Made by a program: the position numbers and the translations under genes. Below are positions 260 through 44,042 of a DNA stretch of 53,176 nucleotides, piece by piece. Below the pieces are notes generated by a model. It made no database searches. It was not told the origin of the DNA and was given only the letters and a program-made list of their open reading frames with translations. The stretch covers positions 124,001-177,176 of the forward strand of contig NOWV01000165.1 of assembly GCA_003344405.1 (NCBI GenBank), written 5' to 3'. The stretch is from Trichoplax sp. H2 (lineage: Eukaryota). Each line of letters opens with the position of its first letter. The stretch's first letter is position 1.

Positions 260-3200
260 CAATCATGATATGTTACTTAAAGTTGGAGATGATAGAATAA
301 CAACAATGCAATCTATTGTGAAATGGAATTCCAAAGTTGCCTGGGTTAGTAAAATTTATATTTTTCATAAGCATATGATACAGTTAATCAAAGAGTAAAT
401 AATACCATTTCGGCCGGTAACGAACTGAATTCAATAAACTCGAGGACCTCTACCATAAATAAATGCTTCCTTTATTAATCTATCACCGTAAGAATACTTA
501 AAATTCAGACTTTCGATTAATAGTCTTGCACAATTATTTGTCATAGGCGATTATGGATAGCTATATAACGAAAACTACATTGATAGGGAATCATAATATG
601 AATATGGTAAGCTATTTATTATTGTATCGATACAAGTAGACATTCAGTACATTATCTCATGATTTAGCGCTCTTACAAATTACTAGTAAATAACAAGAAC
701 CATTTGAGCTTAGAATTATGAAATAACAGTCAATTAACAATTATTGCTATAGGTCAAATACGATTTCTCAATAATAGATCCGGGCATTGAGTTTGAAAAA
801 AATCATAACCCTGACAATGGGATTGGTAGTTTCAATGCCGTAAAGGTAAAAATTAGAACATGCTAGCATTCTATGCTATTATCTGAAATATTTCGCCCTT
901 AAATCCTTATTGAAGGTATTATAACGCATAAATATCGATACCTGTATCAATAAAGATATTCAGAATAAGATCTGGCTAACGATACAGTATCATATCTAAA
1001 CATTTAAACTATATTTAACTTTATTGCTAATACAGGTATAAGTATCCAGCTTCATTTTTTTTCTTCACTAGACAATTGCATCATCAAAAGATATTAGCTT
1101 ACTTGAGCATCCATTGACGGCTAAATTTTTGGATACAAAATGGTAAGCTTACATTATTACGTGCGAATCAATGAAACATGGACCTCTTGCTCTTCAACTT
1201 CAATCCTTATAGACAATCTTTCCCTCATTCAGGTCAAAGTATGGCCGCTATATTTATACTGCTAACCTGGCTGTCTACACGATTTTTATTCTCATTCTAA
1301 TCATTTATATCCTCGAAGTAGAAAGGCTTTATCAACATTTAACAAGTAATATAGTCTTTCTAGGGTTTACACGCCCAACAGATCAACCAGCATCTTCTTC
1401 ACTTCTTTTCTCAAATCAGACTGACAATGACCATCATAAGGTAAATTGTGACTTTAAATTTCCAGCTAATTACATAAATCTTAGAAATCATCCTTAAACA
1501 TTATCAAGCAGATAATTTGGGGATATTTAATATATTTAATCATGATGAATCCTACAATTGTATCATGAATTAAAGTATTTATCTCCAATATATCAAAGCC
1601 TGGCTTAAATTTTAGAAACATCTACAATTCGCTAAGCGTCATACGAGTGTTTATTGCAATTTTTTCCGCAATCAATATCTGTCGTGAACTTTTCCAATTA
1701 TATCATGAGGTAATTCGCCAAAATCATTTCATAATGTTAAGTAATAATGCTTGAGTTGCCTTACGGCTCATACCTACGGGAGGCAACTTAATATGTAATA
1801 ATAAATGATTAGAGCTACCAGTCTAGAGATTCTTGTAAGTATTTTCCTTTCAAAATTACTTATAGAGAATTCGGTACCTTTTATCGTGTGAAAACTATCT
1901 AGAGCTGATATTACATAGCGCCGTTTTAGCAATTATTAGCAACTCCAATCATTCAGATGGAACAGCTCTTTGGGCCCTAGGAGCCTTAACTATTCAGATA
2001 TCGTTTATAGATTTAATAATGTTCTTACGAAAGTAAGTCAGCCAACAAACAAGTTTTTTTCATATCAATCATTAGGAATAATTATTTCATCTGAACAGAT
2101 GAAAGAGTAATTATTACAATATCAATTAACCAAACACTCATTCCCTAGGTTACCAGTTGTAGGAAAATATGTGTTAATGATACGGCTTGTGACTTGGACA
2201 GCAATGAAGGTTCATTAGCCAATGCAGTGAACGATATTTTTAAATTATTAATGACACCATACATGTAAAATTTATAAACTAATAAATACTATAATATCTA
2301 GATCTTATCCTTCATATTGAAAAATTGTACTCCTTCTTGGATAACCCCATATTTTTAGGTCCTTCTAGTTATTTCTATTTTACTTTTGGGATTTGCAATC
2401 AGCTTCAATATGCTATGCCATCGCCAGGTTTGATAACTATAAATGATCAAAGTCAAAAAGTATGATGATAACTCCATCATAGTCATTAGCCGCTAATAAA
2501 AGATAAGCAATATACCATAATTCGCGTATTGGCCAACTTCGGGTTTTGGCCGTAACCTATTGTTATGTTATATATACCAATAAGCGATTATAAGAGGAGT
2601 AATATAAAGATACTTACGCCTATATCAAATTCTAGATGTCTTTCTATACTATTTTCCTATCACTTTTCAAAGTCATTGATATGACTGTTGGAGAACTGAA
2701 CTATAGCGATCTTCTGGATGCTATCCGCAAAGGCAGAATCACTTATCCTGATGCTTATATGTTGGTTCTTCTTATAATTCTATTCATTTTCTTCATGCCA
2801 ATCCTCATGATGAATCTTCTGGTAACACCTGCTTATGCCAATAGAAATTATGAAATAGCATAACAACAACCCTAGATATACATTTATTTTAGATATTACA
2901 CTAAGAATAAGTATTCGAGTTTAATAGTAGGATCTAGAATGCTCATTCGCCAGTCAATACTATAATCTAATTTAACTTTATAAATCGTTAATCACTGTAT
3001 ACTGCATAGTCTCTTGTATCAAATAAAAATTAGTATCAGCATGAAATCTGTATCATTAGTTTTAATGCAAACATTAATATTAAAAAATATTTTATTTTCT
3101 TTACATAAGTAGAACAAACACTAGTTCGAAAACGTTTATTATCATTACTGAGAGATCGCAATTTGAGATGAAATAAATAATGATGGTCTTTTCATTCGAA

Positions 3201-3798
3201 AAATTTAGATTGGTTTAGCTGTTGGTGATATAAATGAAATGGAAAAACAAGCTAGTTTACGACGTCTGGCTGATTTAGCTGCCTTCTTTCATAATATAGA
3301 GAGAGGTGTTCCAACCTATTTTCGCCAATATTGTGCTTTAGATAAGATAGAGTGCATAGAATCAAAAAACTATGTGAGTTATAAATATTATCTTAGGAAT
3401 AACCTTTAAAAAAATGACAAATACCAGTCTTTAGTCATTAATAAATATTTGATTGCTTATTATTTCCATATTTGTTAGTTATAAAGAATAATTCAACACT
3501 CTAAACGGTATCTCATTTTTACCAGTATACCGTGAAAAATAGTACAAATAGAAACGAAGATCCTGATAATGTGCTTCAAATTAATCTCGAAATGCAGTCA
3601 CAGGCTTTACGGTAATCTTATAAACACGCATCATAGCAATAGTTGTTTATGTTCAATTAGATGAAAGTTTGATCCGATGATTTTTACGTGAACCTCTTTT
3701 TTAGGCTCGACGCTTTGCAAGACAGATTAAAGCTTGTTCATCATACTCTAGAGAAGGTTCTATATCAATCATCCGAGAAATTTCTTTCAAGTGACTAA
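260..3798 (+). CDS. TRPA1: TRPA1-like cation channel, paralog 1 (3' half only; the ankyrin region lies upstream of the window)
   Basis: Manually spliced GT-AG exons ~260-344, 547-606, 753-845, 1072-1142, 1233-1440, 1599-1709, 1866-2032, 2149-2209, 2359-2427, 2636-2821, 3209-3373, 3526-3611, 3705-3798 (TAA), all in phase. They encode pre-S1 'LLEHPLTAKFLDTKW', six TM segments, pore 'DMTVGELNYSD', S6 'FMPILMMNLLIGLAVGDI' (human TRPA1 has 'FVPIVLMNLLIGLAVGDI'), a TRP-like helix and a C-terminal coiled coil. Confidence 0.93.
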
Positions 3799-4813
3799 TT
3801 TGGAATTCTAGGAGTTAAACATAAATGCTATTAGACTTGAATCTGAAACAAGGCATTCAAAACTAAGCAAAGTCGAGAATGAATAAAATTACCAAGACTA
3901 GGTATCAAACATGCTGGCCATTCATCATTCATTTCGAGGAAAATATTGCCTGTTCCTTGGTACCGGTAGCTCATCGATTACTAAACCTTGTACCACTCAA
4001 CAAAATAAACAAACTATTCCATTTCGCTGTAGTGATTGCCATTCTTGAGATATTTTTTAACTCACATTGCAATCAGAGCAATGATTAATTCTGAAGTGGT
4101 ATTTCTCCATTCCGATACCAAAGAGATTTACATACTTTTGCTGTACGATTGTTACTGACTGATGATGATTTTTACCCTTAACAAGTTGAAGTATTGCCTC
4201 TTGAGGAAGTTTGCGCACTAAAGTCTAAATTCACTAACTTTCCTTTAGAAAGTCATTCGTTCTAATTACCCGGGTACTTAGCCTTTACTTTATATCTGCG
4301 GTTAGCAAATAGTCAGATCAAACATTACTGCAGCATACTTTTAAAATTAGTACAAACTTAATCAAGCCGTCAAAATCTGCCCAATTTTGTGTGGATAACT
4401 AAACTTAATGATAGTATAATATGCATAGAGATCAGCGATACCTCCATTAACCACATCGACTGTTATGAGTAATTACGCATGCTAGCGTAGAAAATTTTAT
4501 ACTAGCATGTACCGAAATATCCTACCTAAATTGATAACCGCAACGATTATATTGAATAACTGTAGAGATCACAAGATTAATTAATTATTTATGTCTCACT
4601 TATTATAATAGACAGCAATAAGTAAGGACATTAGTAGCCGTTTCCTTTTAATATGTTGTGGATGCCTATGAAAATATATTTATGCCATTGATAAGTTTAT
4701 TTGATGGACAGATAGTTTACTAATATATATATATTAGATTATCTTAATTCATTATTATCTTTTAAATTTAAGCTCCAAAATAACCTGTAATAAAATAACA
4801 GTTATAGCTTGCA

Positions 4814-5631
4814 AAAAAAGTTTAATTAGATTTGCATTATAGAATCTACTTCTTTGTAATATTTCTAATAGTGCTTATTCTTTAGATATGACCAAGGTAT
4901 TTTTCTGAAATGTTAGAAATATCTGTCGACTCTTAGTACACATTTTGCATGCTTAACTATCTGTAATGAAATGAAATATGTAGAGATCAAGCTACGAAAC
5001 TTTAACAAACTTTGATTCTACTTTCGTTGCACTCCGGTCGACTTAACGCTAATACTTTGACACCAAATAAAATTTGGGGAAATAACCGAACAACAATTTA
5101 TTTCAAAACAAAAATGGAGAGAAGTATAAACCGAACAACCTTACAAATACTTAGCTTTAAGTATTATTAAAATAAATGACAGACTTAAAAACTGTCAACG
5201 ACCAAACAACCTTTNNNNNNNNNNNNNNNNNNNNGACGATCAAACGCCCTTTCTTTAGATTAGGCATTTGCTCTATAGGGCTACTTCTATAGTAATCTAT
5301 ATAATACCTTGTAAAACAATGAAGAAGAAAAGATGGCGACATGATGATTTGGCAGGGTAAAACTTAAAGACACTATCACTTTCTAGGTATTTTGTATAGT
5401 AAAATAATACTAATTACATACTAAAAACTGCAAAGGACTCTACTTTTAGTCCTTTTACTACANNNNNNNNNNNNNNNNNNNNAAAAAAGTTTAATTAGAT
5501 TTGCATTATAGAATCTACTTCTTTGTAATATTTCTAATAGTGCTTATTCTTTAGATATGACCAAGGTATTTTTCTGAAATGTTAGAAATATCTGTCCACT
5601 CTTAGTACACATTTTGCATGCTTAACTATCT
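4814..5631. other. Two 20-N assembly gaps (5215-5234, 5463-5482) with a ~149-bp near-perfect direct duplication (4814-4962 and 5483-5631)
   Basis: The N runs are directly visible. 'aaaaaagtttaattagatttgcattatagaatc...gcttaactatct' occurs twice with one difference seen (gtcgac vs gtccac). Confidence 0.9.
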
Positions 5632-6827
5632 AAAATGTTTGAATTGAATAGTGTCTCATAATTCCATCATTATTCCATTTCTATCAAATTGGATTAAATT
5701 TCTCTAAGTATAAAGGCATCGTTCTCTGGAAATGAATTATTGATACAATTAGACCACGAATTGTCATCTGGTTTTATTTTTTTAATAGCATCACCGTAAT
5801 ACCGCCATCATAGAAGACACTATCTATCTTCATGGTAAACACAAAATAGTTGCAATTCTCTAAAATAATGCATCAGCTTTAAGCTAGAATGATCAATGAT
5901 TCTATTTTTGCATTCATTACGGTATCTGTAAATGCATAAAAGCCTCTCTAGTCGGATAATCACTTCATATATTGCAGTTACAATTTATCGATCCAAATTA
6001 AACACCATAGCTAGAAATGCACGTATGTCGTAGGTAGATAATTTAATTAAAGTGGAAGATTGCATTATCATTACCGTGTGATCCTATTTTTATCTTATTT
6101 CGCTATGTTGGTTCCTAGATAGAGTAATTCACTTGTGATTAGAGATTCTATTCTGTTTCTGATATTTAATAGTTGGTCTCAATTTCATGAAAATCCTATA
6201 TAATTAATTTTTTACGAAGAATAAACTAAAAATTATATGGCTGGATATACTGTATTCCGCTTGTAGTAGGCGAAACTTTAGTGATATAGTTACTTCAAAT
6301 AATAAATTTGTCTTTCACGTTTTGAAATAAGATTGAAGACGAAATTATTCGCATTAAGTCAATAATTCAATTAAAATAAAAGATACCCTTGGATTAACGA
6401 TTACAATCTAGCCTTGATCCGATGTTTATCGTTACGATTAATTTCTACAAAGAACTATTTACTGTATTACGTAAAGGAATAAGTGATCTCCCGTAATCAT
6501 ATTAAGAATAACTTATTCAATGTCAACGAAGAAGTTTCCAACAGAAACAATCACTATTCTTTTTTCTACCATCTGCTACCTGATGTGTCATTACAAAAAC
6601 ATTATTACAAGAAATTAAGTTCTAATATAATGTACACCTCAAATGGTATTAGACACAGCTTTAGTAGTAAAATTGCACATTTGCTATTATAACTACAAGG
6701 AAGAGATATACCTGCAAGTATACGGGTGTAACCAAAAGCGTATGCTTCGCATTATTCAGATTAAACGATTAATTATTATAGACATCCAAACGTACAGTAA
6801 CACTTAGATACTCACAGAATTACCAAA

Positions 6828-9800
6828 ATGGAGTTAGAATCGATGCAGTTGACTTCTCCAATAATTATAACCAAACCTAGTAAATCGAAAATTTCTATGA
6901 TCAACCCAGGTTACAAGGTAAGCTTCAGATATGGCATATCTTCAATATCTTGCAATTTACATTTCCAGAACAATCGTCAAAAATGCGCTTACGCTGTAAC
7001 TTACTAATCTAACAGCTATTACAGTACCGTGGTGTCCAGTAGTCTCCCCTATATCGTACAGCATATTGAAGAGATGTATACAGTATCCTAACTTTATTTT
7101 TACAGTTAAATTTTCTTGATAGGCTAGCAAGACAGGAAATAGCTCACCTTCTGTTAAAATTGTGTATTGTTGTATAAAGCTAATTCTAACCTCTAATGAT
7201 GCTTGGCTACCCTAATATCTTTACCATAGTCTTTACTCATATAGCTACTGTAGTTGAAACTAATCTCATATTACCACTTTAGGATGACGATGAAAATAAC
7301 TCACTATCCTCACAACCATGCATATCTGACCAAGCAATAACTTATCTTATCAGTCGATTGGCTAAAAATCAGTTATCCCCTCTTCACCGTGCAGCTAAAG
7401 AGAATAATGTAGAAATTATAATGTCTTTAATTATTCATGGAGTAGGCAAGTTTGTAATGGACTAAATTTTTTATATTTCACTTTTACTGTATTTTAAAAA
7501 ATTAATTCTGTGTGTCGGAAATACGTGTAAAATAATATGGTATTGACTGATCTAGTGTTTGTACTTTCAGATGTTAATATTGCTGGAGAACACAATGTAA
7601 CACCACTGCATATTGCAGCAAAATATAACCAGTTGGCAGCTGTACGAGCTTTAATAGCTTGTAATGCAGATGTCCAATCTGGTGATATTAATTTAAATAC
7701 ACCGCTACATTATGCTGCCAAAGCTGGCCATCAGGATATCTGTAAGGTTAGTAGACTAGCAGTAGCACTATATTGCATAAGAATACTTCATCACTTGGCC
7801 TATGCTTATTTTTTAATCACAAACATTAGAAATATTGAGTAAAGTGGAAGCTTTAATATCTTAAAATTTTAAATTAATTGAGTATAAGCTAAATTTTAAT
7901 AGCTGATAAACTACGTATCTGAAAATTAACTTTGACTTAGTGTAAGAGGCAATTAAACTCAGAGTAGACTCCTGCAATACTTAATAATATATGGAGAATA
8001 TTTATCTCATTCAATTTTATACAACATAAGAAATCACGAATTATCAACAGGATATTTTTTTGTACATTGACAGGAGTTATTATATGGTAATTAAAACTGA
8101 TTAGTAACAGTACAAGCTCGTGCGATTGTAGTTAAAGCTGATACTAGATTACATTCAATACAACAAATTATTCTGTAAATAAACATTAAGTAGCACAAGT
8201 ATCAAAAAATTACTTATCAAATGTCTATGTTTATGACTACTACTGTTTTATTAATTAGATATCCAACCACTAATTTTATACTTTATTTACAATAGGCAGA
8301 GACTAGTCATACTTACCAAAATTTCGTAAACCCGGAGATTTCTTTTGCATTATTACTTTGATGCAAAGTTAGCTTTGAACAATACAGTAATACCTCACTA
8401 TTTTTTACTACAGGAACTGTTAAATAACCAGCCGTTTATGATCGACAATAAGAATAAGAAAGAAATGACAGCGTTGCATCTTGCCTGTATTCACAACAGA
8501 AATTTCGTTTGCTCCTATCTGGTATTCACGCCATTCTAAATACTTGTAGATTAATTGGCTAGTAAACCTATTTCCAACAGTTATAAAACTATAGCTAATG
8601 TATTGTTACTGCAGGTTGAAAAAGGTACTGATGTAACCACTAAAACTGAAGATGGTAGCATACCAATCCACATAGCCGCTAGTAGAGGCAATACAGAGCT
8701 AATGGAAATATTTCTTGACGCCGGAATGAAAAACTTGATAGCGCGCATTGATCACCTTAGCAGACGTAACTACGATGGGGCATCTATTCTTCATCGAGCA
8801 GTTCAATGCGGACAGGAACAGGTTATGTCTAGCCCATGTAAAAATGATATCATAGCTAATATTTACCAAAATAAAATCAAGCGAACTAAATCTTTACAAG
8901 TAGATTTCTAAATAACACTCCAGCTAATCCTAATTAAATAAACTCTGATCAAATTTTACAACGGCTAATTTATTTTTTAGGTAGTCATGTTCTGCTTGAA
9001 TGAAGGTGTCGAAACTAATGTTTGTGATGTAAGTAGCGCAGAATATACAAAGTATCACTAAGTTTAATATTGTACAATATCGTAGTTTTATTCTATCAAA
9101 TTCTTACATTGCGAATAATTTTGAGTGGAACGTATAATTTTAATTCCATATAACGCTATTAATGTCGTGAAGTTATTGCTGTCAATATTACTATCTACTT
9201 ATAATTTAAACTTTGAAGATCTTCGACGACCACTAACTCATCGGCTGATAATTAATTATTATTGATGAAAAAAATCGCTATTCATGTATTACTACAACTA
9301 CGTATTTATACTAATAGCAAACATTATACGTTGTAATAATGCCTAGAAAAAAGGTCTGACTCCTTTACATATAGCAGCAATCAATGGAAATGATTCTATT
9401 AGTAGAATCTTACTGACGAAAAGATCTACAATCGATGCACGCGATAATTATGATCGCACACCGTTGCATCATGCCGCTTCCCTAAATCGATTGAATATTG
9501 CAGAAGTTCTTATTAATGCAGTATGTATATTATAAAACTATCCTATCAATAAAAAATATGTGCCTAAATTGCCAGAAATTCATCGAGCTTTACTACTTCT
9601 CTAAGTCTCTGCTAGGGTATAAGCGATACTCATAATTCGATAGAAAATAGCTAATATTACCAAAATTAGAACTAATTTTATATACCTGAATCGTATAAAT
9701 TTATTATTAAAATACATCGAAATTGATAAAATATTTCATAAACAAGCATCACTTAATAGTACGATAATTCTTCTTGTATTTTGTTAGGGCGCCGGCATTA

Positions 9801-12800
9801 ATATTTCAGATAGCAAGCAAACAACTCCCTTACTTTATGCAATTGCAAATAACCATTTACAATCTGCTCAGCTCCTAATCAATCACAACTGCAGTATCAA
9901 GGCTGTCGATCAATTCGGTCGAAATTGCCTTCACATAGCAGCTATTGGAAGTGATGATGACTTAAACTTACTAGAATATTTACTCTCGGTAGGTAACCGA
10001 ATTATACTTAGCGCTCATTAAATACCGAATATTTTATTGTGTTCGATAGCATAAAGAAACAGGATATTAGGAGAACTGAAATTTCTTTTTCTTCATACTG
10101 ATACTAAATTCTACTTGACATTTTAAATATATACTATAGTACCGTTTTCTATTCTACTGCAATTGTCAGTTCATAATCATTAGCCTATTCTTAGAATGAA
10201 AGTGATCAATTTGATCAAACAATACCTTATAACCTATCTGTTATTTTGGAGGTTTTGAATTATTTCACAATTAAGTTAGCTATTGGCTATCGATAAAGAT
10301 AAAGTTCACTTTTATAGATAGATGGAGCTCCAGATATTAATTCTAGGGATAATTATGAACGAACGCCAATGCATTACTTTTGTAACAGAGGGAATATAAA
10401 GGTTACAATTGCTATAACTTCCTTTCGAGGCGTAGACATTTACCAATTATCTTGCTAAGCTTATACTAAAAATTTATTCCTATCAGGGAGTGGAAGTTTT
10501 ATTAAATTATGAGCCAGATTTAAGAATATTAGATGAAGATGGTAATAACTGTTTGCATGTAGCTTGCAAGTAAGTCAGCTTAGAAATTAGCTATAAAAGA
10601 TCCATGAGTCATAATATTTCTTTCGTGTCTGTTACGTCTGTAGTTGTAAAATGTGTGGAGTAATGTGCAATACTGTTGTGGTACTGGTACACCTTGTAAT
10701 ATCACTTCATGATATTCATAGATAAAGTCGGGTACAACTTAAATAAAATCACTTCTTGTCTTCACACGAGAGTTGAAGAGTCTATGCGTTAAGGCATATT
10801 ACTCGTCACAGAGCAGTTCTTAACAGTGTCAATTATTTGTTTCCTTGATCAGAGTTACAGACACAGGTGAATGGGTAGATATTACTATTAGCTAGTAGAT
10901 ATATCATTCAGTACCTTTCTAATTGCTTACAATATATAAAAAATGCTATAAATTCTCCAGAACTTACAGATTCGGGTTTCAATTACTATCGATATTAGAA
11001 ATATTCTAAGGTAGTTTATCATCATTCGTAACTTTGCACGCACGTACCTCAAGAGAGTATTGTACTCAGATAGATGGCGCTGTAAATATATTTTAATAAT
11101 ACAGATACCTTTTCTTTAATTTTTTTCATTTTGCGCAATTTAAAGTATCGGTAATCATTTCCTGTTTAATTTACTTCCGAATTACTGTACACCTGTATTT
11201 AATCTTGCAAATGGTTATACTATTAACCTTGTTCTAGGCTAGGAGCCTTGGATATCGTTAAAGTCTTATTGAACGACTTTCCTCGTCTAATGTGTAGTGA
11301 AGGAGAAGGCAGCAGTAGTTCATTGCATATCGCTGTTTTAAATAACAACTTGCATGTCGCTAAGTTTCTAATAGAACGAGGAGCCGACATTAATCGAAGG
11401 TAAATTTAAAACTTCTATTATCTATGTTACTTACAGTTATTGGCAGCATTTATGTACACTAGGATTCAAAGATATCTTACTTTGTGTAAAATAATATGAA
11501 ACTATAAACGTATCATTACCTGTATAACCTATTTTGAATATAAGGGATGGCAGCTATCGTACTCCATTAGATATCGCCTGCAGTAATGGTTATATACAAA
11601 TTGTTAAAATGTTACTTAAATGCGATGCTTCCATTAATGGTACCACCAATCAATGGGAGGTAAATATATTGCATGCATTATCCTTTGGCCTATTAGATAG
11701 CTATATGGGTTATTATTATTTTCCATAATTATCAACTGGATTAACGCATTCTATGGCTTTATCTATAATCAGGAATCAGCGTTGCATATAGCAGCACGAT
11801 ATGGCCAAGCTGATATTGCAAAGTTATTATTAGATCATGGAGCAGATGCGATGATAGAAAATAGTGATGCCAAGAATTGCTTAGAGATTGCAATTCAGCA
11901 GTGCCAAAAGGATGTAGCAATCGAAATTGCAACAAGTTCATAGTAAATCATAGTCTATTTCAATGCTTCAATTTTTTCGATATATTCACTTTAAAGTTAT
12001 GTTGTATCATTACAGAATAGCCAATGCTATAGAATAATACAAGCCTATAGTGAATATTTTTCGAGTGGTATTTGTATTAATTACTGGAATTTTAAACTAT
12101 TTATAGTAGCCGAGAAATTTTGACCAAAGTAGGATCCGACAAAATAACAACAATGCAAAGCATAATTCAGTGGAACCCAGACGTTGCAGCTGTTAGTTGA
12201 CTCGTATAATTGTACTTCTTCATTTTGGGAGGCAGTTTAAAAAATTAAATTGTAATGTATGGACTATATAAGGCTAGCAGGATATAGTGATTTTTTCCTA
12301 TGTGTGGAGATAAGTTGCATTGAGTTAGTTTATAATATTAAATTGCGATTTATAGATTAAATACGGCTAGCAGAGTACATTGATTTTTCCATTATTTGGA
12401 GATACGTAGCATTCTACGCTAAATTTTGCTTTGCAACTCTGGTGCTATTGCCTGAAATCATACAATACGATCACATTCACTCTTGTAAAATTATACCACC
12501 TTTATTATTACATCATGTATTAAAGATATCTACTTCATTGATGTTATCTAGATCATCATGGATAAGTATATTACCAAGATTCCAATAAGTACCAGCGATT
12601 CTAAAAGTGTCATCTCAGTATGTTCTAAAATTTAATTGCAACATATAATCTGATATTATCAATAAGTGCTAAAGAAATAGAATTTTTAAAGCTTATTCTA
12701 AAATTAACGCTAAATTTTGGTAATGCTGAAGATAGACTAACACTAGCGACGTGTACTTTGAATAACTTTTTAGTGTCAACTTAGTACTAGGGACAGCTAA

Positions 12801-15800: not shown

Positions 15801-16345
15801 GAAATAGAGAAGGCGGCTGCTCTTCAACGGTTAGCCGATTTAACCGAATTCTTCTATAATATCGAAAGAGCAGTACCTACCTACTTTCGGCGATTTTTTG
15901 CCTTAGATAAAATCACTTGTATGGAAACTAAAAGAAACGGTGTAAGCAACACTGTCTCATAGTAAAATGATAGATTTAACATACTTAAATATCTATTACA
16001 ACTACTCTTTAACCATAAAGTACCACTTTTACTGGTAATATATCAATCAGTGATGATCAGATTATGTATTGAATTTCTAGAATATGATTAAAGAGGATAA
16101 GAAGGATTTGATACAAGATCGCATTAATTTCATTCGAGACATAAATGACAAGCTGGAATCACAAGATTTAAAGTAATACTGTAGTACAACATAATAAATA
16201 TTTTTATTAAATACCTATCTTGAAAACCATAATTCGTTCATACCTATATTTATGCTATTTCAGGTTAGAAAATCTGGATTTACAGTTTGATATCATTCAA
16301 CAAAATCTTGAAAAATTACTTCATCAATCATCACGAAATGATTGA
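6828..16345 (+). CDS. TRPA1: TRPA1-like cation channel, paralog 2 (complete, ~26 coding exons, ~16 ankyrin repeats plus 6 TM)
   Basis: Exons ~6828-6917 (MELESMQLTSPIIITKPSKSKISMINPGYK), 7283-7445, 7571-7746, 8414-8521, 8615-8821, 8981-9028, 9347-9520, 9788-9988, 10318-10401, 10487-10569, 11239-11399, 11545-11659, 11773-11942, 12107-12191, 12552-12617, 12911-13003, 13133-13203, 13310-13544, 13712-13813, 13957-14117, 14263-14323, 14531-14599, 15223-15408, 15774-15941, 16081-16172, 16264-16345 (TGA). Repeated TPLH-type ankyrin motifs, pore 'DMTVGEIDYD', S6 'MPILIINLMIGLAVDDI'. The start codon is inferred. Confidence 0.92.
12265..12415. repeat. Degenerate two-copy intronic duplication (~95-bp period)
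   Basis: 'ggctagcag...tgattttt(t)cc.t....tggagata.gt.gcatt' occurs at ~12272 and ~12366. Confidence 0.6.
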
Positions 16346-18380: not shown

Positions 18381-18424
18381 ATAGTAGGAGTTTAAGCTTT
18401 AGCAAGTGTGTGAAAAGTGAACGT

Positions 18425-29700: not shown

Positions 29701-30835
29701 TCAGCTAAGGTTTATTTACTAATGATTTACTATTTAATATATTAATTTCTTGTTCTAGTTGTACTCTTTAATTTATGGTGATGTTACCGACAACAACGAA
29801 AGTAGTCTAGAACCAAACGACGAACAATTTAGAAAAGTTTTTACAGAGTTGGATTCCCATCAGCATCAGTAAGCCAATATAAGCTGTATATTGTAACAAT
29901 ATGTAACTTAAAGATTTTCCTATCAGTTATAATTAGGTTTAAAATCATTTCAAAAGTAAAACAATTTGACTGATTACTATTGATTGATATAAAGACATTC
30001 GAATCTTATGATGAGTTGGATGTTTAATTTTTAACATTTGGTAATCATAATCTAGAAAAATCGAGTAGCTTACTGCTACAAAAGTTAAGGCTTCTGAGCA
30101 TTTCTCAAAATGTATGATAAATGAATCAACTTCGAACCTGAATACTTCACAGTTAAACCACAACAATATTAACCTGTATTAACTTCTTATCAATTCTATT
30201 TTTAGATTTTGATAGATTAATCATAATTATCGCTGTATACCTCATGTACTACAGTATTTTGATTTTACTTATTAGATAGAAGAGAAATTTCCATTTTATC
30301 AATTCTTTGCAAGCTATGATTAGCATTAGGATTATCGTATTGTTAATATACTTATTCTATAGTACTTTAGCAACAATCCCATCAATTTCATCAGATAGAA
30401 GAGAAATTTCAATCTTCAATTTTTTCCTCTATTCATATTTTTGTAGACAAGCTACGCAGAAGTTAAGGACACGATTGATTAATCATAACAGATATTATCA
30501 CTGTATTCGATATAGACTATTTCAACAAACCATTTTAACAATTTTATCAGATAGTATTAGGCTTTTAATAATTTATTTTGCTCTAATTTACCGCTAGTTC
30601 GCGGAGCATAGTTATAAATAAGATGTAGAACAGCATACAACCGACTATAAAGGATGTACTATTTACATCATGCCATAACGTAACATCCTCAATTTATAAC
30701 CTTAAAGATATTTTTTCTGATTGCAGGATGAAAAATCTCTCGCTACAAGTAGATAAAGTGCTCAAACTATTATCCGATAGAAAATGTGATAAAGAACATG
30801 ATTCACTACTTGAGAGCTTGCAAACACCGATTTGA
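20776..30835 (+). CDS. TRPA1: TRPA1-like cation channel, paralog 3 (first coding exon(s) uncertain, possibly from ATG 18889)
   Basis: Exons ~20776-20944 (AAKSGDIELIEK...), 21165-21340, 21451-21558/21570, 21770-21976, 22101-22148, 22308-22481, 23424-23618, 23712-23795, 23897-23979, 24112-24272, 24604-24715, 24796-24965, 25171-25255, 25323-25382, 25489-25593, 25685-25755, 26226-26493, 26605-26697, 27853-28019, 28132-28192, 28272-28340, 29098-29286, 29428-29598, 29759-29868, 30727-30835 (TGA). About 17 ankyrin repeats, pore 'NMMVGEIDYND', S6 'MPILLTNLMIGLAIGDI'. A possible upstream path is 18889-18914 plus 20341-20410 (phase-compatible, unverified). Confidence 0.92.
28402..28538. repeat. Near-perfect 66-bp tandem duplication in an intron of paralog 3
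   Basis: 'atcttgatgaaa..gctgaacgccagcatatacttcattcgtataaggattaaattaattaattg' occurs at 28402 and 28468. Confidence 0.92.
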
Positions 30836-32957: not shown

Positions 32958-33410
32958 GTCATAAAATTTGTTCCATATGCTTCCAGTTTTTAACTATTTG
33001 ATTATACTTTATGATATCAATGCTCCTGATCTTGATCTAGTATTCAGCTGATGCTTATATAGGAAGAAAAATAATAATTAATTCAATGAAACCATATTGT
33101 CAACCATTAAAATGTTTATGCGAATTGAAGAACAATTTATATCAAATACTTGTACCAATACCTACTATGGCATGTAAACTTCTCATAGAAATTGACTGAT
33201 TTTAATCACTGACCTATGCTAACAACTTAAAGCAGGTCGTCAGAAAACCTTATAATTTAGTTTTTCCTTCGTAAGCATTGCTAATTTTATGAAAACAGGT
33301 GAAAGATTTTCATCTATCACCTGCTCTTAATATTAACTTCAAAAATGTTTACAACTACCACAGTTCCCAAAACTAAATTTTTTGTGTCCGGTAAGAAATT
33401 AAAATTTAGT

Positions 33411-36400
33411 ATGAACGATGTCTTTCGAGTAAGTAAAGAGTGTTTGCTGTTTGAGAATTAGATGGTAAAAATAAAAAATTTACTAATACTAATATTATGC
33501 TATTGATTCTACAAATATTTTCATGCACAGGCAGCTAAAGTTGGTGATTTGACACTTGCTGAACAAGCATTGATAAATTCCTATTCAGTATCATTTGTTA
33601 ACAGACTAGATGAAAATAGCTTATCGCCAGTTCACTATGCAAGCCAATTTAATCGAGCGGAATTGATTGAAATCTTAACTAAGCATAATGCAGGTTGGAT
33701 CCTCACCTATCATCCTGCAATCTGTATACATACACGTTTAAATTAAATTTAAACAGTATTTGTCAGCGCTTTCTATTCGTCGGATAGTCTTGGATTATAG
33801 TGATCACCAGGCCGTTTGCCTACAAGTACAGAATGATGTAGGGATATTTTTGCTTATTCTAATCTTTATTATTGATTCTACATTAGATGTTAACGTAAAA
33901 GGTCTAGATGGTATAACGCCATTACATGTAGCCGCCAAATACAATAGTTTAGATGCTTTACAAATTCTGCTAACACTCGGTGCGAAATTAGACGCCCAAG
34001 ATGATGATAATCAGACACCTTTGCATATAGCTGCAAAGCAAGGCAACGTCGATATATGTATGGTAAGCTAATTGATGAACAGAGTTATTAGTATCAAAGA
34101 AATTCACAATAAGCGCTAGAACCAGACTCTACTAAGTACTATAAAATTTACAGCTAATCTTGGTACCTCATCGAAAGCATGAATTCCATTTACATCATTC
34201 ATAATAAAGAAGAATTAATCTTCAAATTACTGTAGTAACTAGTCATTTAGGTTTATGAATTTCATCGAAAAATATGTTTGCCAAGTATTGCTTATTTTCT
34301 AAATTTTGCATGATATTTGATATAACTTCAACAATGCTAACATATCAGCCAAATGATTCAAATTAGATTATACTGAACCAGAACAGATCCTTAATTGCTG
34401 CCGTGGATAAAGATTTGCTAACGCCATTACACCTAGCTTGTAGTCGCGGCAAGCTACTGGTGTGTCAATTACTGGTAAGAATTATAAGGAAATAGCACGT
34501 GAAGTGTTTAAGATTTTTAATCACGACTCTACCAGAAGTCGATTAGGACTTTAATAGCCACCTATATCTAATCGCAAGTAGTAAAGAGATTCCTATCAAA
34601 TATAGATTAAAATTAAGCACACTAATAAGTGCAGTAATAGTCATCCATCAGACATGAAATAATGAGAAATCCTTAATCATAAGTTTAGCTTTCAGATCTT
34701 AGGCATGGGATGGATTTTACGTTGCAGAACATTACTACAAGATTATGATATGCTCACCAATTTTATAATAGTGGTAGAATTTAGTATTAAATACATATCA
34801 TTGATTAATTGCACACTACTTAGCAGTGTAGCTATATGATATCTATGTGTAAATAAGTAGTTTACTCGAATAGAAAGTACAGTAACAGCTAGTGAGTTTT
34901 AGTGTTAGATATATAGCATTGATTAATTGCAATCACCACTAAACAGCGTAGCTATGTATATAACGTCTATACGGTAATAAAGTAGTTTACTTAAATAGGA
35001 GATACAGCTAGTGAGTTTTTAGTGTCAGATGTCTAGTATTGATTAATTATACAATTTAACTGTAGAGTATTAAATTCACTAATAACAGAGCAATATTATC
35101 CTTTATTCAGTATAGTTGCAAATATAATCCGAAGTAGAGCATTGTACTGTCCTGTAAACTTCCTTCTGCATAGTAATCTAGCACCTATACTTCTTCGTCT
35201 ACATATGGAAGCGCGCAAAATGGAGATGTTAAATTTGAACATACCATTTTTAAATAAAGCTATCATCCCGTACATACAGTAGAGTAATTATAGAATCGAC
35301 AATATATACTGTAGCTATGTGCTAAATTATTAATTCTGACATAATCAATTTCTGTGCTAAACCTTTAATCCTATTTCTCTCCAATATCATTAGCTTTCAT
35401 ATTAATTTACACAGTAAATCTTGAACGTAGATTAGAAATGGAGCTAATATTAATGCACAAGCCATCGATGGTAGTATTCCAATACATTTCGCTGCAATTC
35501 GAGGAAGTGTTGAAGTTATGCAACTCTTGTTAGATACAGTCCAAGCACGAAATCTTAAGTTAAGCCAACATTTACTTGAAAGTGATTATGACGGCAGAAC
35601 AGTCATTCATAAAGCAGTTCAAGGAGGCAATATGGAGGTGAAAGATAGATTATTTCATAGTTAGTTTGTTCACCCTCTACCTTATACTAAAATTTTGTCC
35701 TTATTTGTATTGTATTAGGCAGTTTTATTATGTCTAAGGAATTCCGCTGACATCGCTGCGTACCAAGTAAGAACATATGATGACACAGAGCATCTAAATT
35801 TTAAATACCATCAAGATAATTTATACCACAATCTCAAAGTTGCTTCCAAACCTAATCATATCGAAACTTCCATCACAAAAACTTTTTGATTCGTTATAAG
35901 CAAAGTCTATTCTTATTTCAATCTGTAGAGAGATGGGACTACAGCTTTGCATATTGCGGCAGCTGGTGGATTAACAGATATTGCCGATGCTTTAATTCAG
36001 AGTTTTGCTCCAATTGAAGCTAAAGATAATCAAGGTAGAACAAGTCTCCATTTAGCATCCATGTATGGCCATTTAAAAGTAGTGAAAGTCTTGGTAGAAA
36101 ATGTAAGTTTACGCTTTTGAGCCGAGTACTACTAGAAGAAATATCCGTTGTTTAAATGTAAAATCGAAACCAAAATCGTAAATGAAATGGTCGATTTGCT
36201 AGAGCTATTGAATTGATTGAATTCTCTCTCTCAATCTTATTCATCTAGAGAGCTAGGATTGATTTGGTGGACGACAAATTAAGAACTGCATTATCCTATG
36301 CTATAGAACAAGGCCAATTAGCTGTCAGTAAATACTTAATCCGAGAAAAAGCCAATCTGCATGTCGCTGACTATCAGGGTAGAAACTATATGCATATCGC

Positions 36401-39400
36401 TGCCTGGCAAAATAACACGGAAATCATGGCTTATCTTCTAACGGTAAATAATCGCAACTTATTTATATTCGATGCAGAATTGACAGAAATAAGAAAGAAC
36501 TAGTATCAATTTAAATTCCATATCAGAATTCGATCTGTGATCAAAAATAGGCTATAAATGAATTTAAAGAATTTTTTTCTAATCATTCAGAGAGGTGCTG
36601 ATGGATTTATTAACGAAATCGATAAATTTGAAAGAACTCCTTTACATTACGCTGCTGAAGAAGGCAGTTATTCGGTATCTACGGCAAAAACTTAATACTA
36701 ATGAAATTACATAAACCTAGCATACACTTCATCCAGCTAGAATTCCTCCCTTGCTTTAATTTTAATAGCGTTCAAATTTAGCAATTATTCCTTCTTTTAA
36801 GGTTATAAGTCAAAGAATTTTCTTTAAACCTACTATTAGATGCTACTTCATTCTCATCTAAATTAATTAATTACACAGTGGACATCCAAATCTTATTGCA
36901 AATTATATGACAAACAGCGCTCTAAACCAACAAAGCTAGAATTTACAAGTGCATGCAATGTTGTGAGGATAAATTCTATTAAGCTTGCTGGCTATTAAAG
37001 AAGCACTTTGATTAATATCATTAGCAAGCTTTAAACATTGTTACCGATTAATATTTACATTTAATCCATTAACAAAGAGTTAAACCATTATCTGGTTTAT
37101 TATTAAACGCTACCCATTCGCATTTAGATTGCGTCAATTGCACAGTGTACATCCAAATCTTATTATATGACAAATAGAGCTCTATGTCAAATAGGCTAAA
37201 ATTTACAGCTGCAGACAATATCTTTAGGATAAATTCTTTTAAGTTTATTAGCTATTAAAGAAATACTTTCATTAATACCAGTAGCAAGCTTTAAACATTG
37301 TTATCGATTAATATATTCACTTAATTTATTAGAGAAGTGTTAAACTAATATCTATTTTAATCTACTAGTTTAGTTAAAATTTACGGTCATATCCAGGTTT
37401 AGATACCGTTTGATTTAAATATTTGTTGATATTTGACAAGTTGGCAATTAGTTATAGCGCAGTTACATCATGTGTCTCTCAAAATCATGTAATAGTTATT
37501 ACATGCATATTGATATTGTTATTTATATTTTCAACCTTAAAGCTAAAAGTAAATCAAGACAAAATTTAGCCTATCGTAACTTCATAATTTTACGAATATT
37601 ATACTAATATTCTTCTAATAGGCCATGGAAACATTATTGGCCAACAAAGCAGCGTTGGATATAACAGATGCAGACGATAATACTCCATTACATTTAGCTT
37701 GTAGGCAAGTTTCCTCGTCGATATCTTCCTTACTACTGCATATTAAATATCCATGTGTACTCAGTGATTATAGGATACAGTTATGCGGTAATCTCAACGA
37801 TTTACATCCAGCCTATTCTACTTATTTTATTTAGAAGAGGAGATTTTTACTGCGTTAAATTATTGTGTGATAAATCGCTAAATAAACTGAATAGCCCAGG
37901 GGAACGTTCTCGAACACCTTTACATATGGCCGTAATTTATGATCACCTCAAAGTTGTCCTACAGTTAATAAAGTATGGAGCTGATATTAACAGGAGGTGA
38001 GATAATTCCAATTTACAGTAGCTCAGATTCCATCTTTCCATCCAGCCTAGTATTAATATAAAAGTAAAACTTTCTCAGGTTTTATATTCTGTACAATACT
38101 ATAAAACATTATGCTTGATTTAGGACTAAAATCACTATTGATGCAAAACAGCTAATTGATACTAATTACCGCATTTGATTCTATCAAAAATATCATTATC
38201 CATTATGCTAGGGATGGAAGCTACTGTACACCTTTGAATTTAGCTGCATCAAAAGGTTATGAAGATATTATTACAGTATTACTTGATGCCGGTGCGAACA
38301 TCGATATTCAAAATAGTAAACGCGTAAGTTGCCATTTGAAGATTATTAGTATGAATTATATTTTGCTTTTCTAAGCCGTTAATTCTCCAGGATTACGAAT
38401 TTATACATCTCATTGGATTTATACTGTAATAACGGAGTTAATATATTTGTACCGTTAACCACCATGTTCTTCATCTTATCATTAATATATTCTGATCTTG
38501 ATTTAATTCTCAAGTCGAATACTAGTTTACAAAGTATCGATGTACTTTTCAACTAGTAGGCTATTAAGTTTAAATTATGGTTATAGCTATAATCAATAGG
38601 GATATAAGCAAACAGTTTCATTTTATATATATATATATAACTGAAACTAGTCTCATTTTCGCTTCGTATTAGTCTTAGGAGCGAACTGGACCGTTGAATA
38701 TATGTTGACCACAAATTTTTAGTTTACCATATTCCTTCCTTCCCTAAGTCTTAATTTTCACAGGAACTCAATACATATAGTCTAATCTCCTAGGTATCAT
38801 ACCTTTACAATCGATGATGCAGTAGTTCAATATTTAGTTGTATGCAATCCAATCATAGTAATAAATCAATCAATAAATAAACAATACCAAAGGCGGGCGT
38901 AGTATTTAATTTATAAATACTCTTTAATGGATTTTAGCAAACAGCGCTACATATTGCAGTATTTCATGGGCATACAGAAATAGCTAAAATACTTATTAAA
39001 CGAGGAAGTAGCTTACTGGGGCGAGATGAAGAGAATAAATCATGCCTTGATATTGCGATCGAGCGCAATCATGAAGAAATTGTATCCATTATAGTCAAGG
39101 AAAAAGAGTAAGATATCGGAATGGCCTAATGAGCTAAACTACATCAATCAATTCTAATTTATTTTAATGATTAATATAGGCAATCTCATATAATAAGGCT
39201 TTATTCATCGCGTTATTTTTGTTAGAGGACGCCAGATCATGCTTGAAGGTGGGCGATATTCCCAGACACCAATGCAGAAAATAATTGCAAAATTGCCTGA
39301 TGTCGCTCTGGTTAGCAGATAGACTTTTCTCCATATTCATCGATATCCTATCTTTACTTTAGTCTCCTGACAATTCAATTTGCTATAAATTTTTATAATT

Positions 39401-42400
39401 GGTTAATTCCTGTTTGATAATGTAGCAAGTAATGCAAAACTGCATTGAAAGATCTTGCAAGAATAAAAATCGCGAGGACTATAGCGTAAATATAATAAAC
39501 TGATATTGAATAACGATAATATGGTCTCTTGTTACTAAGATCGTGACAACATAGTTTATATCCTTGTTGAGGTCTTAACTCATTATAATTTATTAGATTG
39601 AATATGATTTTACCTTACTTGATCCCGGACCTCAATTTGAGCTAAATGCCAAGGAGCATGGTATGAAGAAACCTCAAGACTATAACTCCTTAAAGGTTAG
39701 TTTCACCAACCGGAACTTTTATAACTATACATGACCATATCTGCGGTTATTACTTATTAAGAATTTAATATTGTTGAGACTAGTAGAGACTAATGTAGAC
39801 CATTTTGAAAGTTTATAATATACCCTCGATGTTCTAACCTTTAACTCCATAATTCGATGATATATTCTAATCTCTGATTAATGATTCAAATTTAATTGAT
39901 ATTCAAGCATTCTTGAAAATATCTTAAAATTGACTTTTTATAATCTGTCCCTTCGAATGCTTACCGTTTACTAGTAGATTTACAATTATTGCTCAAATAT
40001 TAATTTAACGATATCATTTAATATATGACAGTTAAAAAGGTTAATCTTAACGTTGTGTTGCAATTTATAAGATCAACTCAAATTGTTCGGTTTGCAATCG
40101 TGATAGAGATAATACCATAATTTTAACAACTTGTATACTATCCAGAACATTTCTATATCTTATGTTGACGATAGACTATGCTACAACATCAACGACTTGA
40201 ATTAATTGGGCATGAATTATCAAGAGCTTTAATTGATTGCAAATGGTGAGATTCTATGTATAATTTAGACTTTGTGTTCATTACTGTCATCGTTTTTTTT
40301 AATTTTATGAAATGAGAACGGAAAATTAGTTATTGTTCATAGTAACACTGATAACACATTTAAAAATATGTTTGAGGAATTAATATAATAGCCTGACCAG
40401 TCTCAAGAAATTTTTCGTAAATAGTGTAAAGATCACGCCATCAAGTAATCTAGAAAAGCTATTTACAGTATACATGAGGCCAAAAATGCTATCTGTTACA
40501 ATTTTATTGAAATTCGGTATTTACATTGTTTTCCGCATATTTCATCTCATACATGCCAGAAAATTATCCTGCACTGTATAAAGTGCCTAATGTACTATCT
40601 GTTATGATTATTTGGATTATAGGCGACGCTATGGATTATATGTATTTTATTTAAATCTGGCATTCTATATCGTTTTCTTAACATTTTTCACCATTTATGT
40701 TATGGAATTATCATACAATACGCCTAACAATAACTTTACTAACGCATTGGGAGGAAATAAACAAAAAACAGCTGCAAGCACAGTTTATCCAACGACTCCA
40801 GAGCTATCTACTTCGGATAGTAATTTAACAATAGTAGTAACTGATAGTTCAATCGATTCAACCGCAACAGTAAGTGATTTATCGAACACTTTTAGCCTTG
40901 ACGATTAAATATGCTATTGAAATCATATGCTATAAGTCATACGCGTATGTAATATTCAGCGAAATTGCTTCAATATTCCGGTTTCAAATCAAAATGATAT
41001 TTATACTCCTACAATCAAGAAGTGGTATTTAGATTTCTTTAGGACTAGCTATCATATGTGCTATATTGATTAAATGCCACACATCATGTATAATAATCGT
41101 AATAGAAGCATTAGCTATGGTTCAAAGTGTAGTATTAACGAATTGATCATCTATACTGTTTTAGTAGTTCATCTTATTAGTCTAGCAATAACAATTACTG
41201 TGATATTTTTATAAATCAATAGTTTTGAAACTATAACTGCTATGTCATTTATTTCTTCTTCGCAAGCTTAATGGTACAATAACAGACTGACTATGATGGA
41301 GTGAGAAATATTCATATCTTTAATGCTACTGTACAGGATAGCAGTTTCTATTTTCTTCCGCTTCAGAACTCTGACAAAATTTGAAGGGTCTTAAGTGTTC
41401 AATAATAAGTGATACACTTAGCATTGTTACCAATTTAAATCTATATTCTCCTGCAGATTTCTAGTACAAGACTATCATCTGGTATGATAATGATACAATT
41501 AATCGTTATAATCTTTGGATTAATTAATTTCGCTAAGGAAATATCCGAAATGGCTCATAAGGTAAATTATGTTAAACCCTAGCTAGCTATTAAATGAGAA
41601 GGATATTCTGTTTTCACAATGTGGTTGGTTATATCCGTTACTAAGTGTGTAGAAACTGATAATACTTATATTCTATCCTTTTAATATCACCTGTTATAGG
41701 GATTCAGCTATTTCACATCGTTTTCAAATTACGTCGAGATGTCACTTTATACGACAGCTTTCATTTTCATGTTCCCTTTTGGTACTAAACCAGATCAAGA
41801 TCAATGGTTGATAGGCAGTATAGCCATATTTCTAGCTTGGATTAACCTCTTACTATTTAGCGAAAGGTAACGAATATTGATCTGGTGCCAACGTTTATAA
41901 AAGAAAATAGTACTATACTATTAAGCCTACTAGTGTTTCATGTTATCATATTCCTAATATAGATTGGCCCATTTTGGCATTTTCTCGTCAATTTAGTAAT
42001 TTTATGTACTAATCTTCTTTTGCGTCACTATACCGTATCAGAATCAACTTTTTTGGAATTTACGTGCTCATGTTGAAATCAGTAATAGGGACATTTCTGA
42101 TGGTAAGTCAAAATATAAAAAATAGTCTCTACCGGTCTGACTTTATGCAAGTATGAAATTACAATTATTAAGTGATGTCATAACATCATTATCGTACTTC
42201 TTTCTTTTGATTGGTGCTAGTATAACCAATGGCAATGTATTATCTAAATGCAACTACTAACAGTATATTTTTTTAATTAATGGACTTCTATCGTAGCTAG
42301 TACCCGTTATCATAATCTTTATTATTGCGTTTGGATTTGTATTTTATATTGCAGCAGGCACTGAGGTAAGATATAAAACATAACAGATTAGCATTCATAT

Positions 42401-44042
42401 GTACATAAAGATTGTGCTGATCCTTTTTGAAAACATTTCTCAACAATTACCTCCTATAAATATTATTATTTAAATAGGCCGCATTTAGTACAATCGGACT
42501 GTCATTTATAAAAGTTATCGATATGATGGTTGGAGAAATTGATTATATGGACGTATTTGTTACTCCAATCTCCAATCAGACGATTGCTTATCCCCATAAT
42601 ATACTAGTCCTGTCATTTACTATCTTATTCATATTCCTAATGCCAATCCTGCTAACAAATCTTATGGTAGGTTAACGCATCCATAGTCTGTTTTCTATAT
42701 AAATATAAATGATTAAACTTTTAATTATAGAGTTAAGTGCACAACTTAATTTAGTGATGAACGCAGCCATAGTCTGCCTTGAAGACAAATTTAGATTTAA
42801 AGCATCAAAGTAATTTATAACGTCGAATTATGTTAATTTAAGCATAAAGAGTTGTCGCTTACTCTATGGATAAATATTAAATTGAGGGTTCAGCCGCTTA
42901 CCTTATGTTAACTGAAGCGTTATCAGTCATAGTCGGAGTTACTAATAACTCTAATATTGGAAATTAAGTTATATACAGAGTTAAAATATTACTTTAGCCA
43001 TCAAAATAGGCGTAAAAAGTCCTATCAATCTATTTAGAAATTAAAAATAAAGCTGCTCAGATCATGGTTTCATTTGATAATTATTAAGACTAGCTCAGCT
43101 TCATTGCTTAAAGTTCGGTTATGATATAAATTTAAGCATGAACGTAATTGCAACTTATTTCGTAGGTAAATTTTAAATTAGTCAAAAAATCGAGTTGCAT
43201 ACGTCAACTTCAAGTATATTGCTGTTATAATTATGACACATCTGTTACCACTAAACAGTAAATTAGGCCAGGATCGGCGTTACATTTATAAAATTTCAAG
43301 AGTTTTTGTTATAATGTAATAATGCATTGGAGTCTACTTAACTAGTTTTATCACATTTTAAATTAGACTGGTTTAGCGATAGGAGATATCGAAGAAATAA
43401 AACAGAATGCAAGCTTACGAAGACTGCAAAATCAAGTTGAGTTTCTGGATGATTTAGAAAGATCCATGCCATTATACTTCAGGAGAAGACTGTACTCCTC
43501 CAATACTGTAATTTATCCAAATACAACTGCATATAAGGTAAAAAAACTTCCTTTAGTTTTTGCCTAAGTTGTTAATTAAGGTATTTCTATTAACATGGGT
43601 AAAAGTGGACTTAATATCTGACCCTAAAGATGATAATTTATACCTATACAGGTTCATTCATTTATAAATGGGCGCATAATAAAAGTTCGAACTAATGATA
43701 ATAGCCAAGACCATGAAAAATTTAAAAAGATTCATCATAAGTTAGAAGCCCAAAAGCAGCAGTAAGTTAATATTTATACTAATAATGTACTTATTGATGT
43801 AAATCTATTGCCCATATCTGGATTACTTGGACCACAGGTTAATGATAGATAAGTCCTTACTTAATACTGTTGTATCGGAACATATTGTTCGTTGTAGAAT
43901 AAGACATTTAAACTTTCAGCTGGAGGATATACTTAAACGCGTATCCGGTAATCAAATACCCCAGCAACGCCGAGAATCATTCGGTGATATTTATAGCACT
44001 ATCCTCCCTAACTATTCTAGTGGTGTTGCTGGTGAGGCATAA
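33411..44042 (+). CDS. TRPA1: TRPA1-like cation channel, paralog 4 (complete, ~26 coding exons)
   Basis: Exons ~33411-33428 (MNDVFR|gtaagt), 33531-33693, 33887-34062, 34367-34474, 35431-35637, 35719-35766, 35929-36102, 36249-36443, 36591-36674, 37622-37704, 37835-37995, 38212-38323, 38938-39107, 39226-39310, 39426-39485, 39597-39695, 40176-40246, 40623-40869, 41457-41561, 41700-41866, 42042-42102, 42298-42366, 42478-42666, 43367-43537, 43652-43761, 43899-44042 (TAA). About 17 ankyrin repeats, pore 'DMMVGEIDYMD', S6 'MPILLTNLMTGLAIGDI'. Confidence 0.92.
34798..35050. repeat. Degenerate ~120-bp tandem duplication in an intron of paralog 4
   Basis: 'attgattaatt' recurs at ~34800, 34918 and 35038. 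'agtagtttact..aatag' and 'acagctagtgagtttt(t)agtgt.agat' each occur twice. Confidence 0.75.
36874..37350. repeat. Diverged ~267-bp tandem duplication in an intron of paralog 4
   Basis: 'cacagtg.acatccaaatcttatt...tatatgacaaa.ag.gctcta...aatttaca.gtgca...aggataaattct.ttaag...gctattaaagaa...tagcaagctttaaacattgtta.cgattaatat' starts at 36874 and 37141. Confidence 0.88.

Follow-up and report, generated by a model that had tools for sequence, protein, structure and literature searches.

A tandem array of diverged TRPA-family channel genes in the placozoan Trichoplax sp. H2, a candidate sensory repertoire

TRPA genes of the window and of the genome

We analyzed a 53,176-nucleotide stretch of DNA from Trichoplax sp. 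H2 (contig NOWV01000165.1, positions 124,001 to 177,176; hereafter the window), which holds four genes, A to D, whose products combine ankyrin repeats with a six-transmembrane (6-TM) channel of the TRPA family, and which form the end of a larger tandem array. An initial annotation of this DNA had described four same-strand ankyrin/6-TM genes here and raised the possibility of a nerveless host; the host is a placozoan and the four genes are borne out, although the first lies only in part inside the window. Of gene A (model C203_126), the 3′ half (260-3798, + strand) comprises exons 14-26, encoding the coupling domain, S1-S6 and the C-terminus, while the 5′ half reaches up to 5.9 kb to the left of the window. 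Gene B (C203_139; 6828-16345, +) is a complete TRPA gene with 26 exons and about 14 ankyrin repeats, and gene C (C203_153; 19901-30835, +), also with 26 exons, is identical to the 1107-residue NCBI protein RDD38700.1 (P0002). Gene D (C203_166; 33345-44042, +), again with 26 exons, equals NCBI protein P0001 except for an exon that P0001 omits: located at 40623-40869 (+), it encodes S1 and the S1-S2 loop, is open and in frame, and has introns conserved in the paralogs. P0001 and P0002 otherwise map exactly onto genes D and C, respectively; the acceptor of the last exon of gene D is uncertain, falling at 43838 in P0001 and at 43898 in our model.

The loci were modeled with a purpose-written spliced profile-to-genome aligner that gives no bonus for shared intron positions. 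It reproduced four out of four public proteins exactly, and it scored the gene B region at 3117, compared with 50 for the reverse strand and 52-69 for three shuffles. Each of genes A-D was modeled with 26 exons and carries no stops and no frameshifts, in agreement with the initial annotation. In principle the aligner could bypass a stop by means of a false intron, but the conservation of intron positions across models argues against this: 21 of the 25 introns coincide exactly, in both column and phase, in all four window genes, just as matching positions and phases had been claimed, and the other four are attributed to the variable N-terminus, the S1-S2 loop and the C-terminus. The introns are GT-AG, bar one consensus GC-AG intron in each of A, B and D, and 5 of the 10 array genes together contain 7 consensus GC-AG donors. 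The consensus GC-AG donors at window positions 7445 and 37704 belong to introns whose positions are conserved in paralogs, and the public model of gene D uses a nearby GT in place of the GC donor. The window DNA is AT-rich (~31% GC) and intron-dense. The clear divergence of the four proteins noted earlier holds as well, with pairwise identities of 31-51%.

The array runs from 29 kb to 168 kb of the contig and comprises ten intact TRPA-type genes, all in the same orientation, and one pseudogene, the window holding the last four genes. The suspected continuation to the left of the window is therefore real (six more intact genes and the pseudogene), and the earlier size of "at least four" genes stands as a minimum but is corrected to ten. 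The pseudogene lies between the first two array genes (C203:43060-49656) and is a TRPA remnant reduced to ankyrin sequence and interrupted by 6 in-frame stops. Searching the genome with exons gave at least 47 TRPA loci, distributed over 12 contigs (11, 10, 8, 5, 3, 2, 2, 2, 1, 1, 1 and 1), a lower bound that leaves out a weak match on contig C279. The models exceed 900 residues for 42 of the 47, and 40 of these 42 are clean, one having a frameshift and one two stops; the five short models comprise three located at contig starts, a frameshifted 3′ copy of 378 residues and a fragment. Recent duplicates, in pairs with 90-95% identity, are found beside pseudogenes, so that the array combines the tandem lineage-specific paralogs, young duplicates and pseudogenes that characterize birth-and-death evolution.

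Family assignment, gating residues and selection

Pfam Ank and Ion_trans domains score above the cut-off in four out of four proteins scanned, and our own rough profile finds 12-15 ankyrin repeats in 41 models, as compared to 14 in bird TRPA1. Among solved structures, TRPA1 entries come out on top (380-390 bits, E ~1e-115), while NompC reaches 295 bits over the ankyrins only. A full-length search of a 50%-identity library was dominated by ankyrin proteins, about 17 of the 150 matches listed having the channel domain. A TRPN identity was considered and rejected, given the ~14 repeats and the TRPA1-type pore. Two of the database proteins, P0013 from Hydra and P0148 from Oratosquilla, each consist of two TRPA channels end to end and are probably fused models of tandem duplicates.

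In a FastTree phylogeny of 38 outgroup and 42 placozoan rows, 40 of the 42 placozoan models fall into one clade (0.98). IQ-TREE (LG+G4, 41 rows) resolves a clade I that includes all array genes (100/100) and a clade II (100/99), joined to one another at 89/98, and sets a further pair of placozoan models apart, where the backbone is unresolved. The canonical bilaterian TRPA1 clade of vertebrate, insect and mollusc sequences (100/100) excludes all 19 placozoan rows, a split that denotes separation from canonical TRPA1 and is no evidence of placozoan monophyly; a single origin of all 19 is neither rejected by the approximately unbiased (AU) test (p 0.31) nor demonstrated. The placozoan clades appear to branch among cnidarian, sponge and lophotrochozoan TRPA1-like rows, a tentative placement given a backbone support of 56/60. 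These trees are unrooted (two long-branched crustacean rows serve only to draw the root), use no mixture model, and include three cnidarian and two sponge rows; ctenophores, choanoflagellates and named painless-type channels are not represented. Among the array genes, A and B share one subclade, and C and D share a different one.

By architecture and pore the window genes are thus assigned to the TRPA family, but by tree and cysteines not to canonical TRPA1, so that only the family-level part of the original identification is retained. The lineage-specific clade it anticipated is found, since the window genes sit in a placozoan-only clade (100/100), but this specificity holds at the level of the phylum and not of the species, the genes having orthologs in four placozoans. 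Outside the array, the locus at C235:79904-96835 is a single copy on a short branch at the base of clade II. It retains C621 and all residues of the calcium site, and it is a good candidate for an ancestral-type placozoan TRPA. The two TRPA genes at C708:343960-379463 have extra introns, branch apart from the other 40 and are possibly a second ancient lineage.

Residue columns were read from the alignments, with pore columns set on the bird TRPA1 row. All 42 models have Gly followed by Asp or Glu in the G914/D915-type selectivity filter, and all 42 keep K671, which we take to have its known role in TRPA1 gating. The other residue roles follow PMC8036557, as far as the portion consulted describes them. 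The I957/V961-type hydrophobic lower gate is present: the I957 column holds Ile or Val in 41 of the 42 models, gene D having Thr. At the C621 column we find Cys in 22 models, Ser in 17 and Tyr in 3; genes C and D keep the Cys, and the three Tyr are those of A, B and their neighbour. Classic irritant gating is therefore doubtful for A and B, and the irritant-sensor idea of the initial annotation may still apply to C and D. The calcium site (E788/Q791/Y799/N805/E808) is retained in all five positions in A, B and C and in four in D; it is complete in 19 of the 23 clade I genes, whereas in 15 of the 16 clade II genes no more than two of its residues remain. Gene C has C621, K671, the five calcium-site residues and a G-E filter all kept. 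Gene B has Asp, encoded at 15789-15791, at the S6-end position where 40 of the 42 models keep Gly. The Asp of gene B and the lower-gate Thr of gene D could each be an allele or an assembly error.

The TRPA paralogs are under purifying selection. The ratio of nonsynonymous to synonymous substitution (dN/dS; Nei-Gojobori, 41 coding models) ranges over 0.17-0.34 across the 37 pairs whose dS is <1.3, including 0.24 for gene A and its left neighbour, in keeping with the constraint first proposed and far from the value near 1 that would have spoken against it. Between the window genes themselves, dS is saturated. When nine close pairs are pooled, dN/dS is 0.22 in the ankyrins, 0.21 in the coupling domain and 0.25 in S6, and it is highest, at 0.46, in the extracellular S1-S2 loop.

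Transcription, orthologs and cell-type modules

RNA contigs from four runs were aligned to window positions 1400-21399. For gene B, eight GT-AG joints are listed, all at modeled positions, from run X13, which is on record as RNA; for gene C, two joints agree with the model (19966-20776 and 20944-21165; runs X4, X5 and X13, of which two are RNA by guess only). For gene D the evidence is indirect, a word share of 0.31-0.33 for the region in two RNA-labelled runs, with an exon share of about 1/3. Splice joints thus support the transcription of B and C, and word share points to that of D. Gene C also has alternative 5′ untranslated exons at 18693-19966, with RNA joints 18914-18980, 18914-19817 and 19107-19815.

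Several other features share the window. To the right of gene D, a multi-exon gene with a DUF5745 domain (44900-49900, - strand) bounds the array; we take it to be CEP95. Between genes A and B, a dispersed repeat at 4950-5470 flanks two 20-N gaps, shows very high contig depth in the RNA runs, and has copies of 74-76% similarity within another TRPA array. Tandem repeats lie at 17820-18371 (period 153), 50531-51188 (period 189), 34780-35048 (period 120) and 28402-28538 (period 65), and the end of the contig (51900-53176) holds TACAG/TACTG-rich simple repeats.

For the other placozoans we used the tables of Najle et al. 2023 (PMC10580291), whose orthology table has 199 rows named TRPA1; the statements below draw on 30 of these, from all four species, plus the rows of six orthogroups. 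There, CEP95 is H2 gene 008224, preceded by the TRPA1-named genes 008211-008223. Counting back from CEP95, by position and not by sequence match, we infer that D is 008223, C is 008222, B is 008220/21 and A is 008218. This assignment, on which the gene-by-gene statements below depend, is supported by the orthogroups, which reproduce our tree (a 79% pair falls into one, and A and its 69% neighbour into another). In Hoilungia, the array orthologs then follow in the same order, g01625-g01631, and end at CEP95 (g01632); CEP95 bounds the array on the right in Cladtertia as well, and for C and D a single ortholog is present in every one of the four species, which represent three genera. The shared order and orthologs imply that the array predates the split of the three genera and is as old as the phylum.

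In the portion of Table S3 of the same study that we consulted, 104 rows are named TRPA1 once three potassium-channel rows and one row of another sheet are dropped: 6 from T. adhaerens, 34 from H2, 20 from Hoilungia and 44 from Cladtertia. The 34 H2 rows are spread over 12 modules, with 11 in epithelial, 6 in lipophil-associated, 9 in peptidergic, 3 in fibre, and 1 in cilia modules and 4 in one unkeyed module. Under our inferred match, neighbouring array genes fall into different single-cell modules, which would amount to a partition by cell type. Gene D and its orthologs belong to module group gc002b in three species; two of these label it lipophil_2, and H2 labels it "epithelia_dorsal_like" with peak activity in lipophil cells. 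Gene B and two more array genes share one H2 module, TrH2.darkorange, that is missing from the module key. According to the same table, that module is rich in G-protein-coupled receptors (GPCRs) and also contains four Nav-like models, nitric oxide synthase (NOS), three ionotropic glutamate receptors (iGluRs), ASIC, Kv, TRPM, an opsin-like gene and the only calpain-9 row; calpain-9 is described in PMC10580291 as a marker of "upper epithelia-like" cells, a type called exclusive to H2. Orthologs of gene B lie in the counterpart modules Hhon.royalblue and HoiH23.tan, of Hoilungia and Cladtertia, which also include Nav and NOS genes. The Nav/NOS/TRPA module of the three species looks like an excitable-cell program.

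A putative repertoire of differently gated channels

The explanation that we favour, and hold to be somewhat probable, is that the array belongs to a birth-and-death repertoire of TRPA1-like cation channels that are differently gated and spread among non-neuronal cell types. A TRPA1-like channel gene would have multiplied in tandem early in placozoan evolution, with turnover continuing today, and each paralog would assemble as a tetramer that conducts Ca2+ and Na+ and opens to a trigger of its own, be it chemical, redox, thermal or mechanical. Different non-neuronal cell types would thereby be equipped with their own sensors, whose opening may cause a local calcium rise or depolarization and hence a secretory, ciliary or contractile response. 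The A/B subclade, with its intact calcium site and no C621, might provide the depolarizing input of the cell program with Nav-like channels, Kv, iGluRs and NOS, and gene D might gate lipophil-cell activity during feeding. The channel anatomy, conserved pore, constraint, splicing of B and C, placozoan-only clades and paralog-specific residue losses are direct observations; the distribution over cell types depends on the positional match of identifiers, and a separate tuning of each paralog is suggested by the residue differences.

Several points weigh against this explanation. The equivalent of C665 is Cys in only 2 of the 42 models and in none of the four window genes. In no region does dN/dS exceed 1 in the nine pooled pairs, so adaptive divergence is not demonstrated. 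For gene A, no splice joint is found among those listed for contigs of the four runs (five joints are unlisted), which is no proof of silence, and gene A is also absent from the consulted part of the module table. The module of gene C is inconsistent, weakly fibre (0.54) in H2 and dorsal epithelium in Hoilungia, and none of the seven array genes in the H2 module table is peptidergic, or neuron-like, as 9 of the 34 H2 TRPA1 rows are (PMC10580291). In those tables the genes are named after their best hits, and some of the rows are fragments with ankyrins alone. Lastly, the sections we consulted of a study of thermotaxis point to a TRPM-type channel, by way of a non-specific drug (PMC10498350).

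The paralogs might instead be cell-type-specific channels for calcium entry or signal amplification that act downstream of GPCRs or serve secretion and ion balance, such that duplication split expression and not stimulus. The lipophil, fibre and epithelial modules of the array genes, the GPCR-rich module of gene B, the calcium site kept in clade I and the reactive cysteine missing from A and B would all fit. However, mere splitting of expression would not call for the calcium site or C621 to be lost clade-wide, or for protein identities of 22-35% and an extracellular loop that is hypervariable, and all TRPAs characterized to date are polymodal and sensory, according to the part consulted of a recent review (PMC11526382); we regard this alternative as possible but unlikely. 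Still less likely, to our minds, is a heterotetramer code in which co-expressed paralogs form mixed channels and some of them (e.g. B, with its odd S6 residue) are modulatory subunits. The three array members in one H2 module, whose orthogroups fall together in the corresponding module of two other species, and the unusual S6 residues of B and D speak for such mixing, whereas C and D are in other modules and membership of one module is not equal to co-expression in single cells. That the copies mostly reflect neutral drift in copy number, or assembly artefact, in a genome prone to duplication, as the broken ones (two frameshifted copies, a copy with two stops, a fragment and a pseudogene) and a pair at 95% identity might suggest, is highly improbable and already largely refuted by the 31-51% identity and saturated dS of the window genes, dN/dS values of ~0.25, and one-to-one orthologs of C and D in four species of three genera.

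A bolder form of the favoured explanation, which we put forward tentatively and think rather doubtful, is that TRPA channels are the main ionotropic chemosensory repertoire of placozoans, with at least 40 differently tuned channels across cell types, comparable to insect ionotropic and gustatory receptors (IRs and GRs) or octopus acetylcholine receptors as chemosensory repertoires. The B subclade would then be the receptor of a conserved, excitable, NO-releasing cell program (Nav, Kv, iGluR, ASIC, opsin-like gene and NOS) that lies outside the annotated peptidergic modules.

Both NCBI and the tables of PMC10580291 give these genes TRPA1 names by automatic labelling; the main text of PMC10580291 names TrpA1 once, as a query, in the parts consulted. 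For T. adhaerens, the sections consulted of Zhong et al. give TRPM, TRPML, TRPP and TRPV as the known TRPs, with no TRPA, and two unnamed reciprocal hits there may be TRPAs (PMC10498350). The term "TRP" is absent from the main text, which is the part we checked, of two placozoan genome papers. Our literature searches, whose coverage leaves out most subscription journals, found no paper describing the placozoan TRPA expansion. A 2022 paper by Fadeeva and colleagues in a Russian journal is said to report 42 TRPA1 homologs in this species; our search did not retrieve it, and the gene count may therefore already be in print. For the arrays, their order across genera, the clades, selection, residue splits and partition over cell modules, we found no prior description. 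Trichoplax, although it has no neurons, shows chemotaxis, thermotaxis to 0.1 °C per cm and coordinated feeding. With some 40 intact TRPA channels that differ in build and have putative cell-type assignments, sensing in this nerveless animal becomes testable gene by gene. The set offers concrete candidate sensors of the animal's environment, as well as naturally occurring variants, in which C621 and the calcium site are present or absent, for studying the evolution of TRPA gating.

The placozoan channels share with canonical TRPA1 (vertebrate TRPA1 and Drosophila TrpA1) an ankyrin array of about 13-15 repeats, coupling domain, six transmembrane segments, G-D/E filter, hydrophobic lower gate and K671; the calcium site is shared with clade I and lost in clade II. 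Canonical TRPA1, which is single-copy in mammals, differs in forming its own clade without placozoans, and of its cysteines C621 is variable and C665 nearly absent in placozoans. Further counterparts are the "TRPA1-like" channels of cnidarians, sponges, lophotrochozoans, echinoderms and hemichordates, among whose rows the placozoan clades appear to branch. Modest expansions are on record in this group, whereas Trichoplax has at least 47 loci in a 95-Mb genome, with arrays of up to 10-11. Local TRPA duplicates are apparent in database entries for Hydra and Ptychodera. The arthropod TRPA radiation (painless, pyrexia and water witch) is alike in principle, with duplicated TRPAs responding to different stimuli, but includes far fewer genes. 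In abalone there are 8 TRPA1-like genes, 6 of them in the TRPA1-like clade (PMC12980990, in the part consulted), and the portion consulted of a 2024 review calls this subfamily functionally uncharacterized and suggests that tandem duplication may affect large receptor genes, TRPs among them, less readily (PMC11526382), a suggestion that the placozoan TRPA arrays contradict. In their tandem clusters, their young duplicates beside pseudogenes and their apparent partitioning among cell types, these arrays resemble those of odorant receptors, insect GRs and IRs, and cephalopod chemotactile receptors; they differ in that no positive selection was found and in that the candidate sensors are 10-kb, 26-exon channel genes.

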